A stretch of DNA of 64,000 nucleotides from Candidatus Multivoradales bacterium (GTDB lineage: Bacteria > Acidobacteriota > Thermoanaerobaculia > Multivoradales > JAHEKO01): positions 602,526-666,525 of the forward strand of contig CBDCXF010000002.1 in the NCBI GenBank assembly GCA_965223755.1, written 5' to 3'. The notes under the pieces were generated by a model, which did not search any database, was not told the DNA's origin, and saw only the letters and a program-made list of their open reading frames with translations. The position numbers and the translations under genes are program-made. Shown here one piece after another: positions 30,759 to 40,455 of this stretch (within the stretch, counting starts at the first letter, position 1; every line of letters starts with the position of its first letter).

Positions 30759-32729
30759 CTACGGACAGATATTGTGATAATTCCAGGCAATCGCGTAGTA
30801 GCGTGAAAAATCGGCTGGCGGATTGGAGATGCTGATTGTGATGGTGTAGGTGTGTCCCGCAGTTGGTACAAACTCAACAAATTCGTAATTATTTTGGGCG
30901 GAAAGGGACCAAGCGACCGCGGCGCCAGTTGCCTGGTCGTAAACTCTTAAATCCAGGTCCAGATCGAGCATCGTGTTGGTATCGTTGGTTGCGAGGCTGT
31001 CCCAGGTCAGAGCAACACGAATTTTTCTGCCGGGGTCGGGTGCCGCAACTGACCAGGACTTGGAGAAGGCTCCGCTGCCGTCAAAACTGTTTTCGGTCAT
31101 GGAGCCGAAGTCGTGTGCGTTGTTCGCTGGCATCGAGGAGGTCTGGCGCCGTTGCGCAATTGCGACGGCCTCAAATGCATCAACCATCCCCACACCATCG
31201 GCACCGTCCGGGCTGTTGTCCGCGGTCCAGGCACTACCATCGGCCATCTGATAGCCGGCCGAAGCCATTAAGATGGCGCGCACGGCCTCCGGCCAGTATT
31301 TCAGGCTGGGATTAGAACTCATCACCAGCGATGCAATTGACGCCACCACTGGCGCAGCCGCACTCGTACCACCGAAGTCACGATTCAACAAACAATGACG
31401 GCTGCCGGGCGCGGCAATTTCAGGGAGCTCTCGGACCGCGTAGGTGGGATTGGTTACGGCACTGCTGGCGACTATCGCGTCATCGCAGATGTCCCCGTCA
31501 GCGTTGTTCTCAATGTTGCCTACCGCAAAGTAGTTGTATCCCTTCGGAAAGACAAAAGGTACAAAATTTCCCGCGGCGGAAAACACCGACGGAAAAGGAT
31601 ATCGGACCACTGCGTAATCGAAAAACTTGTCTCGCGCCGCCAAGTTACCTGTGCCTTCGTCGCCCAGACCCCAACTCATCGTTACCACATTGACTCCGTT
31701 TTGCACGGACCAGCCATACTGAGCCATGTAGTCCTGATTGGTTCCGGCAGTGTTGGCTGCAAGCACATCGGCACCGGGTGCATAACCCTGCAATGGACCG
31801 TCACAGATATCGCTTCCGGCACCGTCGAAGGTATTACCGATCATGGCGTAGCTATTGGTCACATGAGCATCACCCGCGACCCCGGGAGTGCGAGTTGCAG
31901 CTAGATTGAAACAGTCATCTGGGTGATCATTACCACCATCTTCCACCACTGCGATCCGTACCCCACTGCCGTCATAACCGAGTTGATGAACCAAATCAGT
32001 GCCAGTACTTGGCAATGACGCTTGAATGTCCTTACAAGCAAGTGCCACATCTAGAGGTGGATCCTCCTTCGGAGGTATCTCACCGATGTAGATAAATTTG
32101 TCCTCGCAATAGACATCCAACAGTTGCTCACGGCTTAGTTCCGCCTCGATAAAAGGTCCAAACGCAGCTCTTATTTGAGGTGCTGGTACCTCTCGGTCCT
32201 GCAAAGCCAGAGTAAAGAATTCAGCCGCATACTCTTCGGTCTGATGACGGATCTCAGTGGCCAATGGTCCAATCACTTGATCGATCCTTTCCGCGTCGAC
32301 CTCGGACTTGTCCAACTCAGGTTCCTGTACTGCCATTTGAAATAGCAGCCGGTTCACGGTGCCAGTCGGCTGTGCGACAACTCGGTCATAGAAGTCTGGC
32401 TCTAGGGCGCAGTAGAGCTGCCTCTTCACCAGTCGATCCTGCTGTCTCAAAGCCACCAGATCCACCCGCTCACCATAACCGTCAAATGAAAGCTTGTGTA
32501 AGCGCCCACTGCGTGCGTCGTGCAAACTGAAGGTTTCAACTTCGGCCGCAAGTTGCGGCAGCACGGTACGGTGCTGCGCCAGCAACTGCAGTTGATCCTC
32601 GGTTTGCAGCAGTTTCTTGAGTTCGGACTCGTTGTTGATGTCGGCCAATTCGTCCGCCGTGACTAGCGTCGGACCAACGAACAGCGTGATGCTCAGCAGA
32701 CTGCTCGAAACTATCCTTTGGTTCATCAT
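30759..32729 (-). CDS. Secreted S8 subtilase, divergent (ED-H-S-like)
   Basis: Signal peptide, long pro-region, IAVVEDG, HVT, SAAGN, GTSAAAP; C-terminal VALTW...DLDLDLRV domain. Confidence 0.85.
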   Translation of the reverse strand: MMNQRIVSSSLLSITLFVGPTLVTADELADINNESELKKLLQTEDQLQLLAQHRTVLPQLAAEVETFSLHDARSGRLHKLSFDGYGERVDLVALRQQDRLVKRQLYCALEPDFYDRVVAQPTGTVNRLLFQMAVQEPELDKSEVDAERIDQVIGPLATEIRHQTEEYAAEFFTLALQDREVPAPQIRAAFGPFIEAELSREQLLDVYCEDKFIYIGEIPPKEDPPLDVALACKDIQASLPSTGTDLVHQLGYDGSGVRIAVVEDGGNDHPDDCFNLAATRTPGVAGDAHVTNSYAMIGNTFDGAGSDICDGPLQGYAPGADVLAANTAGTNQDYMAQYGWSVQNGVNVVTMSWGLGDEGTGNLAARDKFFDYAVVRYPFPSVFSAAGNFVPFVFPKGYNYFAVGNIENNADGDICDDAIVASSAVTNPTYAVRELPEIAAPGSRHCLLNRDFGGTSAAAPVVASIASLVMSSNPSLKYWPEAVRAILMASAGYQMADGSAWTADNSPDGADGVGMVDAFEAVAIAQRRQTSSMPANNAHDFGSMTENSFDGSGAFSKSWSVAAPDPGRKIRVALTWDSLATNDTNTMLDLDLDLRVYDQATGAAVAWSLSAQNNYEFVEFVPTAGHTYTITISISNPPADFSRYYAIAWNYHNICP

Positions 32730-32771
32730 CTTCTCCAGATAATTGGTTGATTGTTGGCGCAGGAAAATGAG

Positions 32772-34940
32772 CTATTGCAGATCATTCATGCGGATAGCCA
32801 TCTCACCGGTGACGGACTGCACCGGCGTCGTGCCGACATATATGGTCGTGATCACCGGCACGCGAACAAAAGTGCGCTGACCGATGCGGCTGGCAACCTC
32901 AGCTAGCAGCGGCGAGATGTGCTCCGCTCCAGGCGGCGGATCGTAAACATGCTCGAAGCGAGAGGGCATGTACCGGGAGGCGAAGGCAAAACCAGGATGA
33001 TTGGTCGGCCCTAGAAATGTCGACTCCCAATGGACGGTCTGAACTTCGACGACGTCGTATTGAGTGCTGTGGTTTAGATTGCAGTCAGCATCAACAAGGT
33101 CGACATCGTTGGTGGTCCAGTCACCGTCATCGATGTTGTTCCAGCCCTCCAGGTCGCAGATTTGATCCATGCATTCGCTGCTAGTGGTCTCAATCACAAC
33201 GCGCTGCAACGCGGCCGGCCGTTCATGATCAAACTTCAGCGAAGTGAATACGGGCGTGCTCCACCAGTCGAAGGCCAGCGCTGTTCCGATGGCCAGTTCG
33301 GCCGCTTGCCCGGTCTGCGAATCGAAGGTACCCCAACCACCCCTTGGGTCACCGTTAGGAAACACGTTGGAATTTCCCTCGTTCTGATTCAGCCGTTCAG
33401 CGTCCAAGTCTGGGCCGGTAATAGATCCGGACGGCGGAAACGCGTTCTCCGGCTGATACAAGGGGTCTCGATAATAAGATTTCCACTGCAACGCCATGTG
33501 GCCCCATTGCTCGACAATGCCCGTGCTCGCGTCCCCTACAATCCAAGTGGTGTCGTAGGGCCCATCGATCTCGCTCATCTCGTACTCACAGGTGGCGTTG
33601 GCGGCCACGTCGGAGAAACACCCAGCTAACAGCAACAGTTCTCCATCGATCGCGGTTAGCGAGAATTCGGTCTGTTCCTGAGGATGGGTAAACGAAACAG
33701 CAACCTGCTCGCTGAGCGTAAGTGGATCGAGCCGTCGCAGGAAATAGGTGCCTGCTTGTTCGTTGCCCTGATCGGCGTACAGCGTCGTGAAACGCAACGG
33801 AGCTGTTTCAGACGGCACGCTTGGTAGCTGCCCCGAACCCACCAGATAGAGGGCGCCATCGGCCTGATCGAAATATAGATCGTGGCCGTCAGTGGAGCCC
33901 GTGGAAGCACCGTAGGTAGTGGTGACTAACGGCTGGAGGCTGCTGTTCAATCGGCGCACAAACACTTGGCCGTCGCCGGTTTCGCTGCCCTCTTGATTCC
34001 GTTCAGAAGTGCGCTCGACGCCCAGCAGCAGGACATCTCCCGTGTATATATTCCGTTCCAGCGCCCGAATTTGATCTGAAACCTGATACAACGATTCCGC
34101 TTGCGACCGTGCATCGAGACGGATCAGGTTGGCCCGATCCGCGGTTTGCAGTACCAAGTAATGACCGCCATCGGCCGAGGCTGTGTTGATTACGCCGCTG
34201 GGGTGGCCAAAACTGATCGCAATATCAATGCGATCGGCCTGATTGGTTTGACTCTCAAGCAGATCACCCGTCAGAGATAGCTGGCCGTCCCGCTCGACGA
34301 ACCCCCTGGCACCGTTCGTGGTCAGCTCAAACAGCGTTGCTCCGGTCTGGGGGTCTTGACCGTAAAGTTTGTGGTTGCCGGCAGCATGGGCGACGTAATC
34401 AATAGCCGGTACCTGCAGTTGGATGCGGCTGCTATCGGCGGTAGCGGAGAGCTGGTAACTCAGAGTTAGCTTGCGCGGATTCAGATGATAAGAAAGATCG
34501 ATGCCGGGGTAGACCTGCGGCAACAACGCTGTGGTGTATGCGCCGGCTGATGCGGTACCTGCCCCAGTGTCGATTCGCGCCCCTCCAGGCAACACGGACA
34601 CCCCGCTCAGCGTCGTTTCAGACGTGGCACCGAGTGGGACAAATGTCAGATCGTGCAGACGGACACTATGCGCATCCGGCATGATTAGAGTGATGTCGCC
34701 CGCTGGGCCGATGCTTACGCCGGTGCCCGCTGCAGCTATCGCACTTAGTCCAGTCTCACTGTCCACGAATGGGAGCTCCAAATTGGCTATCGAGTCAGCA
34801 AACGCCGCTTCTTCCAATTGCGGGCAATAAGGATTCGTTGTTTCGGCCAGCAATGGCTGGAACGACATCCAGCCAGTAAACAGAGCCAGTGCAGACTTGC
34901 TAGTACGTGAAGTTGCCACCCTCTTGTGTAGTGAGTGCAT
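32772..34940 (-). CDS. Large secreted hypothetical protein with degenerate DUF7948/SBBP-like N-terminal half
   Basis: GGAGG RBS, signal peptide; VYPGIDLSY...LSYQL...ADSSRIQL and VFVRRLN...TTYG resemble SBBP-associated modules; C-terminal half unrecognised. Confidence 0.6.
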   Translation of the reverse strand: MHSLHKRVATSRTSKSALALFTGWMSFQPLLAETTNPYCPQLEEAAFADSIANLELPFVDSETGLSAIAAAGTGVSIGPAGDITLIMPDAHSVRLHDLTFVPLGATSETTLSGVSVLPGGARIDTGAGTASAGAYTTALLPQVYPGIDLSYHLNPRKLTLSYQLSATADSSRIQLQVPAIDYVAHAAGNHKLYGQDPQTGATLFELTTNGARGFVERDGQLSLTGDLLESQTNQADRIDIAISFGHPSGVINTASADGGHYLVLQTADRANLIRLDARSQAESLYQVSDQIRALERNIYTGDVLLLGVERTSERNQEGSETGDGQVFVRRLNSSLQPLVTTTYGASTGSTDGHDLYFDQADGALYLVGSGQLPSVPSETAPLRFTTLYADQGNEQAGTYFLRRLDPLTLSEQVAVSFTHPQEQTEFSLTAIDGELLLLAGCFSDVAANATCEYEMSEIDGPYDTTWIVGDASTGIVEQWGHMALQWKSYYRDPLYQPENAFPPSGSITGPDLDAERLNQNEGNSNVFPNGDPRGGWGTFDSQTGQAAELAIGTALAFDWWSTPVFTSLKFDHERPAALQRVVIETTSSECMDQICDLEGWNNIDDGDWTTNDVDLVDADCNLNHSTQYDVVEVQTVHWESTFLGPTNHPGFAFASRYMPSRFEHVYDPPPGAEHISPLLAEVASRIGQRTFVRVPVITTIYVGTTPVQSVTGEMAIRMNDLQ

Positions 34941-40394: not shown

Positions 40395-40423
40395 GTCACA
40401 ACCTCCATATGATCTCCGCCTCC

Positions 40424-40455
40424 ATTAATGCGCGTTTTAGCGCAGTATTCCCTCA
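40424..40455 (-). promoter_or_regulatory. Putative ECF promoter TGAGG-N17-GCGCA-TTAAT
   Basis: Matches the motif at 35570-35601; about 30 nt upstream of the start codon. Confidence 0.55.

Follow-up and report, generated by a model that had tools for sequence, protein, structure and literature searches.

What does an extracytoplasmic function (ECF) sigma factor control when its gene is paired with that of a receptor kinase and flanked on both sides by genes for exported proteins? The question is raised by a locus of Candidatus Multivoradales bacterium (Acidobacteriota, Thermoanaerobaculia) located in a stretch of 64,000 nt from contig CBDCXF010000002.1. This stretch is called the window below, and coordinates are positions in it unless another locus or genome is named. 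The host genome (G000) comprises 3.24 Mb in two contigs and is 98% complete. A 43-nt piece of the 16S gene in the window matches exactly only metagenome-assembled genomes labelled Acidobacteriota, Thermoanaerobaculia or Ca. Multivoradales (6 of 6 matches). An earlier note on this DNA had described an ECF sigma factor, a Ser/Thr kinase with a receptor part made of tetratricopeptide repeats (TPRs) and four further genes. All six genes are present, as six long open reading frames (ORFs) that occupy positions 30759-40394, and they belong to one island:

30558..40505, no strand assigned: accessory island of ~9.95 kb with six genes, recognised from an empty site in genome G001 and from GC content at third codon positions (GC3)

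We consider it probable that this island is a phosphorylation-switched circuit in which two promoters are activated and four proteins exported, a wiring deduced from sequence comparison. Signal peptides had been claimed for all four non-regulatory proteins, and each does have a hydrophobic, signal-like N-terminal segment; these export calls were made by reading the sequence and with a hydropathy window.

The sigma factor and its kinase

35815..36369, plus strand: ECF43-type sigma factor of 184 aa (PF07638, TIGR02999, QTTA motif)
36373..38994, plus strand: receptor Ser/Thr kinase of 873 aa (Pkinase, TPR_12, hydropathy)

The longest ORF for the sigma factor starts at TTG 35707, and ATG 35815 is the likelier start. 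The protein matches Sigma70_ECF (PF07638) with an E-value of 1.3e-45 and NCBIfam TIGR02999 with 186.9 bits (cut-off 126.15). Its acidic sigma-2.2 motif is replaced by QTTA, in the context LQTTALVHE, and the QTTA pattern fits 30 of 42 sigma factors of related modules. The kinase gene begins 4 nt past the sigma stop codon. The predicted order of the kinase is an 80-aa conserved N-terminal extension, a Hanks kinase domain (Pkinase, E 1.9e-40), one transmembrane (TM) helix and an extracytoplasmic TPR domain (TPR_12, E 1.7e-76, ~440 residues of TPRs). There is a single hydrophobic span at ~396-420, with the hydropathy peak at residue 396 and KRHR just before it. Residues K111 (VAIK), D204 (HRD), N209 and D222 (DFG) are invariant across 35 kinase orthologues. 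No anti-sigma domain was found among the island proteins.

In the supplement to the ECF classification (PMC7826278), group ECF43 combines the Sigma70_ECF type with a kinase encoded at position +1, which has one TM helix and extracytoplasmic TPRs, and with Ser or Thr (S/T) replacing the sigma-2.2 DAED. The consensus is QTTA with a phosphorylated Thr, and 83 aa extend ahead of the PknS kinase domain, as given in PMC13147305. Such a sigma factor is described, in PMC8999054, as inactive until phosphorylation gives the negative charge needed for core polymerase binding. The earlier note had likened the island pair to these phosphorylation-activated systems, and its domain, its +1 kinase, the QTTA motif and the kinase layout of one TM helix plus outer TPRs all point to the ECF43 type. 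The pair thus has the Sigma70_ECF architecture, a +1 TPR kinase without an anti-sigma factor and an S/T motif in sigma-2.2. It departs from the narrow group of classification 2.0 in its acidobacterial host and in the motif TGAGGGA-N15-GCGCC, which stands against GTC/CAG. As the proteobacterial range and the GTC/CAG promoter are not matched, we file the pair as ECF43-like in a wider sense.

There are six ECF-kinase pairs in all in the host genome. The closest other one (G000:C2:30296-35813, locus L114; ECF 190.9 bits with a module-built hidden Markov model, HMM) has two plus-strand genes between the kinase and sigma genes, a layout also seen in L071, L075 and L080.

A promoter-like motif ahead of exported-protein genes

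38991..40394, minus strand: C467, exported Cys-rich protein of 467 aa, of an unnamed family; gene convergent with the kinase gene
40429..40455, minus strand: P_C467, TGAGGGA-N15-GCGCA, 61 nt upstream of the C467 ATG; top score in the genome
35575..35601, minus strand: P_pep, TGAGGCA-N15-GCGCA, 87 nt upstream of the start of a peptide precursor gene; eighth in the genome

Motif discovery by k-mer enrichment in the DNA ahead of C467-like genes yielded a bipartite pattern, TGAGG/GAGGGA combined with CGCC/GCGC, and the aligned sites read TGAGGGA-N15-(G/C)CGC(C/A)T. The strict motif stands upstream of 31 of 53 C467-like genes, 2 of 43 ECF genes and none of 53 kinase genes, counted from -300 to +90, a span in which at most 0.016 matches are expected from the overall frequency in the loci. 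Eight reverse-strand matches in the first count were largely second, divergent copies facing neighbouring genes. Further exported-protein genes are preceded by the motif, encoding beta-helix/NosD-like proteins (L086, L092, L094), a di-haem DHOR protein (L075) or proteins without a family (L020, L071, L079, L082, L088, L090).

A scoring matrix was built from 29 sites of other genomes, with the window sites excluded, and run over both strands of the host genome, where 21 matches reach at least 12 bits. It ranks P_C467 first (19.6 bits) and P_pep eighth (14.8 bits) genome-wide. The claim of the earlier note that both transcription units start with the same promoter-like motif is borne out by these two sites, which score beyond chance, and the motif is kept upstream of C467-like genes in related genomes. 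P_pep is located in the 300-bp gap between the peptide and sigma genes, and the first base of P_C467 is position 40455, the very end coordinate of the region delimited in that note. The geometry fits ECF promoters: the elements are ~16 nt apart, and the start codon follows the -10 element at a distance of 25-95 nt. In the island, the predicted transcription starts are ~8 nt past the GCGCA elements.

The motif is absent from the sigma-kinase operon of the window, which fits a switch at the protein level rather than autoregulation. In two closely related modules, L019 (14557, minus strand) and L051 (13810, minus strand), the motif lies ahead of the ECF gene, with 27.6 and 27.9 bits. Some family members, not that of the window, may therefore be autoregulated.

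Two other sites in the host genome are of interest. The second-best match (G000:C2:1129696, minus strand, equivalent to ~3197 in L113; 17.7 bits) is followed after 47 nt by the gene of an exported protein, divided between two minus-strand ORFs of L113 (2734-3150 and 2067-2717); the GDS and GGND blocks of this protein look, by eye, like those of SGNH/GDSL hydrolases. This split gene is possibly a distal regulon member or a broken gene. At 25334 (plus strand), 10 kb from the island, there is a weak match of 13.9 bits; an ORF for an erythromycin-esterase-like protein of 450 aa (25370-26722, plus strand) begins 36 nt downstream of it.

C467 and the conserved triad

Neither Pfam nor NCBIfam gives a match to C467, and no Pfam family is consistent among 64 members. 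A profile made from four members retrieved 156 cluster representatives at E <=0.001 among 1.84 billion proteins, nearly all of them 440-520 aa long. C467-like genes were found in 31 of the 300 genomes of the host's order, at up to 5 copies per genome, and their distribution by family is uneven (f6 17/24, f7 7/92, f4 3/8, f2 2/6, f3 1/8); none of the 44 other genomes of the host's own family has one. A phylum-wide sample of 401 genomes yielded the host genome only, besides two marginal matches.

The surroundings of all C467 matches were analyzed by scoring every ORF with HMMs from the first four modules. There were 54 C467-like ORF matches, 8 of which were too near a contig end, and 46 were judged. 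Thirty-eight are convergent with a kinase-TPR gene, and 36 of these kinase genes have an ECF gene as a neighbour. Another six have an ECF/kinase pair within ~3 kb in a different arrangement (L053, L061, L074, L082, L096 and a second copy in L086), and two (L073, L085) are without a nearby pair. The sigma factor, the kinase and C467 are a conserved triad. A small literature search, whose scope did not extend to the primary EcfP paper, found no earlier description of this triad or of the motif. The stop-to-stop gap is <=45 nt in 34 of the 38 convergent C467/kinase pairs, and there is therefore no room for a terminator between the two genes. In the window their stop codons overlap by 4 nt, and no unusually stable hairpin is present at this junction (z -1.0 and +0.3).

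The AlphaFold2 (AF2) model of C467, obtained from a 64-row alignment, has a mean pLDDT of 85.3 and a pTM of 0.85. It predicts an immunoglobulin (Ig)/fibronectin type III-like domain at 27-125, with generic matches of Z 8-10, then a helical hairpin and a long-stranded beta-sandwich at 208-442. Seven Cys are invariant or almost so in the family, and the sandwich is disulfide-locked in the model. The best structural match of residues 208-442 is Bd1399 (PDB 8OKH), with a VIA Z of 8.8, a root-mean-square deviation of 4.3 A over 149 of 165 residues and a Foldseek E-value of 5.4e-6. A search of PDB sequences with the C467 profile gave nothing below E 0.35.

Could C467 also be a part of the sensor, as a periplasmic or surface co-receptor or as a feedback ligand that binds the TPR ectodomain of the kinase? 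This role would be compatible with the circuit proposed here, and we regard it as possible but doubtful. Each C467 gene is kept with one sigma/kinase pair of its own, also where a genome has up to 5 paralogous modules, while other cargo varies, and this strict pairing argues for feedback of C467 on the TPR sensor. Moreover, both are predicted to be in the same compartment, and the modelled fold of C467, with its Ig-like domain and beta-sandwich, does not look like that of an enzyme. However, one stand-alone C467-like gene has kept the motif (L085) and another has neither pair nor motif (L073), and the gene is convergent with the kinase gene, not co-transcribed; both points argue for C467 as an effector only. 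FecA is a precedent by analogy only. A predicted complex of the kinase TPR domain (425-873) with C467 (22-467), using 35-row alignments, scored 0.00, which is no evidence either way.

Origin of the island

In G001, a sister species of the same genus, the homologues of the two flanks (window 28098-30557 and 40506-40931) are ~40 bp apart. Exactly six genes fill the 9.95 kb between the flanks here, and none of them lies between these flanks in G001. The six genes are one inherited block. Their GC3 is 0.54-0.66, versus 0.70-0.73 for the flanks. No direct or inverted repeat of >=8 nt was found at the boundaries, and no integrase gene was seen. In a tree of 40 kinases, the island kinase falls in a clade with module kinases of families f6 and f2 that has a support of 100 in the Shimodaira-Hasegawa-like approximate likelihood ratio test (SH-aLRT). 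The host's five other ECF-linked kinases lie outside the clade of C467-linked kinases (SH-aLRT 87). The tree was made by a quick method (LG+G4, SH-aLRT, no bootstrap) and includes all 35 module kinases of the alignment. Taken together, the empty site in G001, the GC3 values, the kinase tree and the lack of C467 in the 44 relatives make transfer likelier than loss throughout the rest of the family, and the island, a self-contained unit, was probably acquired horizontally. It brings a regulator and its outputs together in a compact 10 kb, which suits testing in a heterologous host.

P722, the S8 protease and the peptide precursor

32772..34940, minus strand: P722, exported protein of 722 aa with a DUF7948-like N-terminal part, a propeller at ~250-450 and a conserved C-terminal domain
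30759..32729, minus strand: S8 subtilase of 656 aa (Peptidase_S8, E 5.4e-19) with an N-terminal region of ~240 aa and a PPC-like C-terminal domain
35092..35514, minus strand: Cys-rich precursor of 140 aa with a signal peptide, an acidic/Pro-rich spacer and two Cys modules

The divergent run of a knottin-like precursor, a 722-aa protein and an S8 protease reported in the earlier note is present in that gene order, with P_pep ahead of it. A scan for intrinsic terminators gave 6 sites versus 10.7 expected, none of them between the genes of this apparent operon.

P722 has only sub-threshold Pfam matches, to DUF7948 and Ago_N_2. Its middle part consists of SBBP/NHL-like beta-propeller blades and matches CylK/Pizza (E 1.4e-6); the AF2 model is poor (pLDDT 58.3). 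Full-length relatives were found in 8 other loci with 18-24% identity; taken together, relatives with 18-27% identity are present in a handful of genomes, most of which carry the module as well. These came from a profile search over the order, and a word-based homologue search gave P722 alone. A relative is divergent from the C467 gene in L018, belongs to a motif-driven operon adjoining the module in L082, lies between the ECF and kinase genes in L105 and directly follows the motif in L108 and L110 (18.9 and 15.8 bits). The relative in L107 has no visible link to a module. An exported protein of ~537 aa is encoded ahead of the P722-like gene in both L082 (5352-6965, plus strand) and L105 (5747-7357, plus strand), with 43% mutual identity. 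Its C-x-C-W and C...C-x-G-E motifs recall C467, and a profile comparison was not significant (probability 0.4%).

In the S8 protein, Asp32 (VVEDGG), Asn155 (AAGN) and the Ser of GTSAAAP (GTSxAxP) align in place with subtilisins. HMMER aligns the position of the catalytic His to a Met; judged by eye, the His of DAHVT, five residues upstream, would fit. A weak PPC match is found at the C-terminal end. Orthologues with 37-44% identity are present in 7 other genomes of the order; weaker S8 matches, at ~30% identity, raise the number to 14 at E <=1e-20. One of the 7 orthologue loci has an unrelated kinase-TPR gene upstream.

The precursor ORF extends over 35092-35535 (minus strand), and the likelier start is ATG 35514, with AAGGAGG 7 nt ahead. 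The protein has 13 Cys in modules of 7 and 6, which show the framework C-C-CC-C-C twice (C-x6-C-x5-7-CC-x3-4-C-x4-7-C) with acidic/Pro-rich linkers between, and it is the sole ORF of the host genome with two framework matches. Two large exported host proteins (G000:C1:440565-442388 and C1:203773-205575, both minus strand) contain a single Cys module with the knottin framework. A homologue search over 5.8 billion proteins returned the precursor itself only.

In a fuller form of the model in the earlier note, the protease would cut the precursor into two free knottin-type mini-proteins, toxins or inhibitors directed against predators or a host. Precursor and protease do share one apparent operon behind P_pep, the two Cys modules are set apart by their linkers, and the protease appears, from its sequence, catalytically intact and exported. 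The look-alikes of the precursor according to a protein language model (ESM Atlas) include Cys-rich toxin families, with weak scores (0.76-0.81). However, the precursor is an orphan, and no knottin-framework ORF occurs in 58 related loci, apart from one spurious match. The S8 orthologues stand in 7 loci without a peptide-like neighbour, and no dibasic or other recognisable cleavage site could be read in the precursor sequence. We judge this model unlikely; proteolytic maturation of toxin-like peptides, proposed from gene adjacency alone, is speculation.

Co-conservation of the whole cluster had been expected in the earlier note. It holds for the sigma factor, the kinase and C467 and partly for the 722-aa family, and fails for the peptide and the protease. 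The first three make up the core of the system, because the peptide is an orphan, S8 orthologues lie outside modules and the P722 family is co-conserved in part. From these comparisons P722 appears as a recurrent regulon member, and the peptide and the protease as additions peculiar to this island.

A proposed circuit

The following course of events would account for the gene content of the island. The membrane kinase would sense an extracytoplasmic cue through its TPR domain and, by homology with EcfP/PknT and EcfK/PknS, may phosphorylate the sigma factor on a threonine of QTTA. The phosphorylated sigma factor would then bind core RNA polymerase and, as comparative genomics suggests, read TGAGG(G/C)A-N15-GCGCA. 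P_C467 would drive C467, the output conserved in nearly all such modules, and P_pep would drive the run of the precursor, P722 and the S8 protease. The switch would be post-translational, in line with a sigma-kinase operon devoid of the motif. Most likely the exported outputs have an extracellular role, in antagonism, defence or surface interaction. As the C467 and kinase genes are convergent, with overlapping stop codons and no terminator, the C467 transcript probably runs antisense into the kinase gene. Judged from this layout, induced C467 transcription probably feeds back on the kinase gene in this way, and the pair may exemplify a built-in antisense feedback.

Several observations weigh against this circuit. 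Across the genome, a loose regular expression for the motif shows no enrichment (98 matches versus 109-130 in five shuffles), and the strict motif is missing upstream of 22 of the 53 C467-like genes. L018, the locus most like the window, has a variant of the motif only. P_pep is no better than eighth in the genome and has the rarer C at position 6 (3 of 30 sites). The proteobacterial ECF43 promoter predicted in PMC7826278 is different, with GTC at -35 and CAG at -10. Since the precursor is an orphan, the case for a real gene is made by its ribosome-binding site, Cys pattern and signal peptide, and a GC3 of 0.57 does not set its frame apart from an overlapping alternative one. Finally, the 7 S8 orthologue loci examined show no match to the ECF factor, C467 or P722 and no motif of >=14 bits.

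As an alternative, the motif might be read by another regulator or sigma factor, with nothing but a common island to connect the exported-protein genes to the pair. The motif is assigned to the island sigma factor by association only, it differs from the motif predicted for proteobacterial ECF43, and the host has five other ECF-kinase pairs. However, the motif accompanies the module in many genera, through dozens of copies, both paralogues and orthologues. In L019 and L051 it even precedes the ECF gene, and the best site of the genome is within the very island with which the sigma factor came. Read by eye, the motif is also unlike a sigma-54 promoter. We therefore find a foreign reader very improbable, and the predicted regulation of the island genes by their own sigma factor is well supported by these genomic comparisons.

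A bolder form of the proposed circuit can be imagined. The sigma factor, the kinase and C467 might be a new three-component signalling unit in which C467 returns to the TPR ectodomain and antisense transcription acts as a brake, with portable cassettes that link lineage-specific secreted weaponry to one promoter code. This is unlikely to hold as a whole. If it were true, such cassettes would here plug a bacterial double knottin and its own protease into a shared promoter code.

Other features of the window

The 23S rRNA gene (3473-7303, minus strand) is 3831 nt long versus 2925 nt for the model. Inside it, an ORF of 188 aa (4566-5132, minus strand) has the LAGLIDADG-type motif LAGFTDGEGSF. Judged from the excess length and this ORF, the gene probably contains an intron that encodes a homing endonuclease, although Rfam intron families gave no match at E <=0.01.

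Comparison with known systems

Among the outputs, the protease belongs to the S8 family and aligns to subtilisins and KerA. It is very divergent from solved subtilisins (E ~1e-5), with its long N-terminal region and PPC-like tail. Knottins, or inhibitor cystine knots, have a C-C-CC-C-C framework with disulfides 1-4, 2-5 and 3-6. The precursor has this framework, as in omega-conotoxins and spider toxins, twice, after a signal peptide and a spacer. Unlike them it is bacterial, tandem and without a sequence family match, and the likeness is known from the Cys spacing alone. It is a rare bacterial candidate for a knottin-type peptide made by the ribosome.

Bd1399 of Bdellovibrio bacteriovorus is exported, disulfide-locked and linked to predation, as reported in PMC10792529. 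This elongated, DUF4360-related beta-sandwich thus shares export and disulfide locking with C467, which has the Ig-like domain and the helical hairpin in addition. The two are not related in sequence, DUF4360 is matched in 0 of 64 C467 members, and at a Z of 8.8 the likeness may amount to no more than a common arrangement.

In FecI/FecR cell-surface signalling, FecA is a target that also supplies the signal. By analogy, this system too has an ECF sigma factor with a conserved target gene that bears its promoter and stays with the regulator genes, as the C467 gene does. In contrast to it, the island has no anti-sigma factor and no TonB-dependent transducer, and activation would occur by phosphorylation.

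The closest relatives in mechanism are EcfP/PknT of Vibrio parahaemolyticus and EcfK/PknS of Xanthomonas citri. These share with the island pair the S/T residues in sigma-2.2, the Sigma70_ECF type, the adjoining downstream kinase gene, the kinase extension of ~80 aa, one TM helix, periplasmic TPRs and the absence of an anti-sigma factor. Kinase-activated ECF sigma factors are represented by few studied cases, all proteobacterial, with signals and regulons that are mostly obscure. The island pair is acidobacterial (Thermoanaerobaculia, Ca. Multivoradales), whereas ECF43 is listed as proteobacterial in the supplement to classification 2.0, and its motif is TGAGGGA/GCGCC versus the GTC (-35)/CAG (-10) predicted for the proteobacterial members (PMC7826278). 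The island also adds a conserved third gene, that for C467, and the convergent layout, neither of which was found in the portions of the EcfP/PknT and EcfK/PknS literature consulted. These traits define an acidobacterial subfamily that has a clear promoter code and, as its conserved exported target, C467 from an unnamed family. Its outputs are exported proteins, versus a type VI secretion system or polymyxin-resistance regulon in EcfP/PknT and EcfK/PknS.

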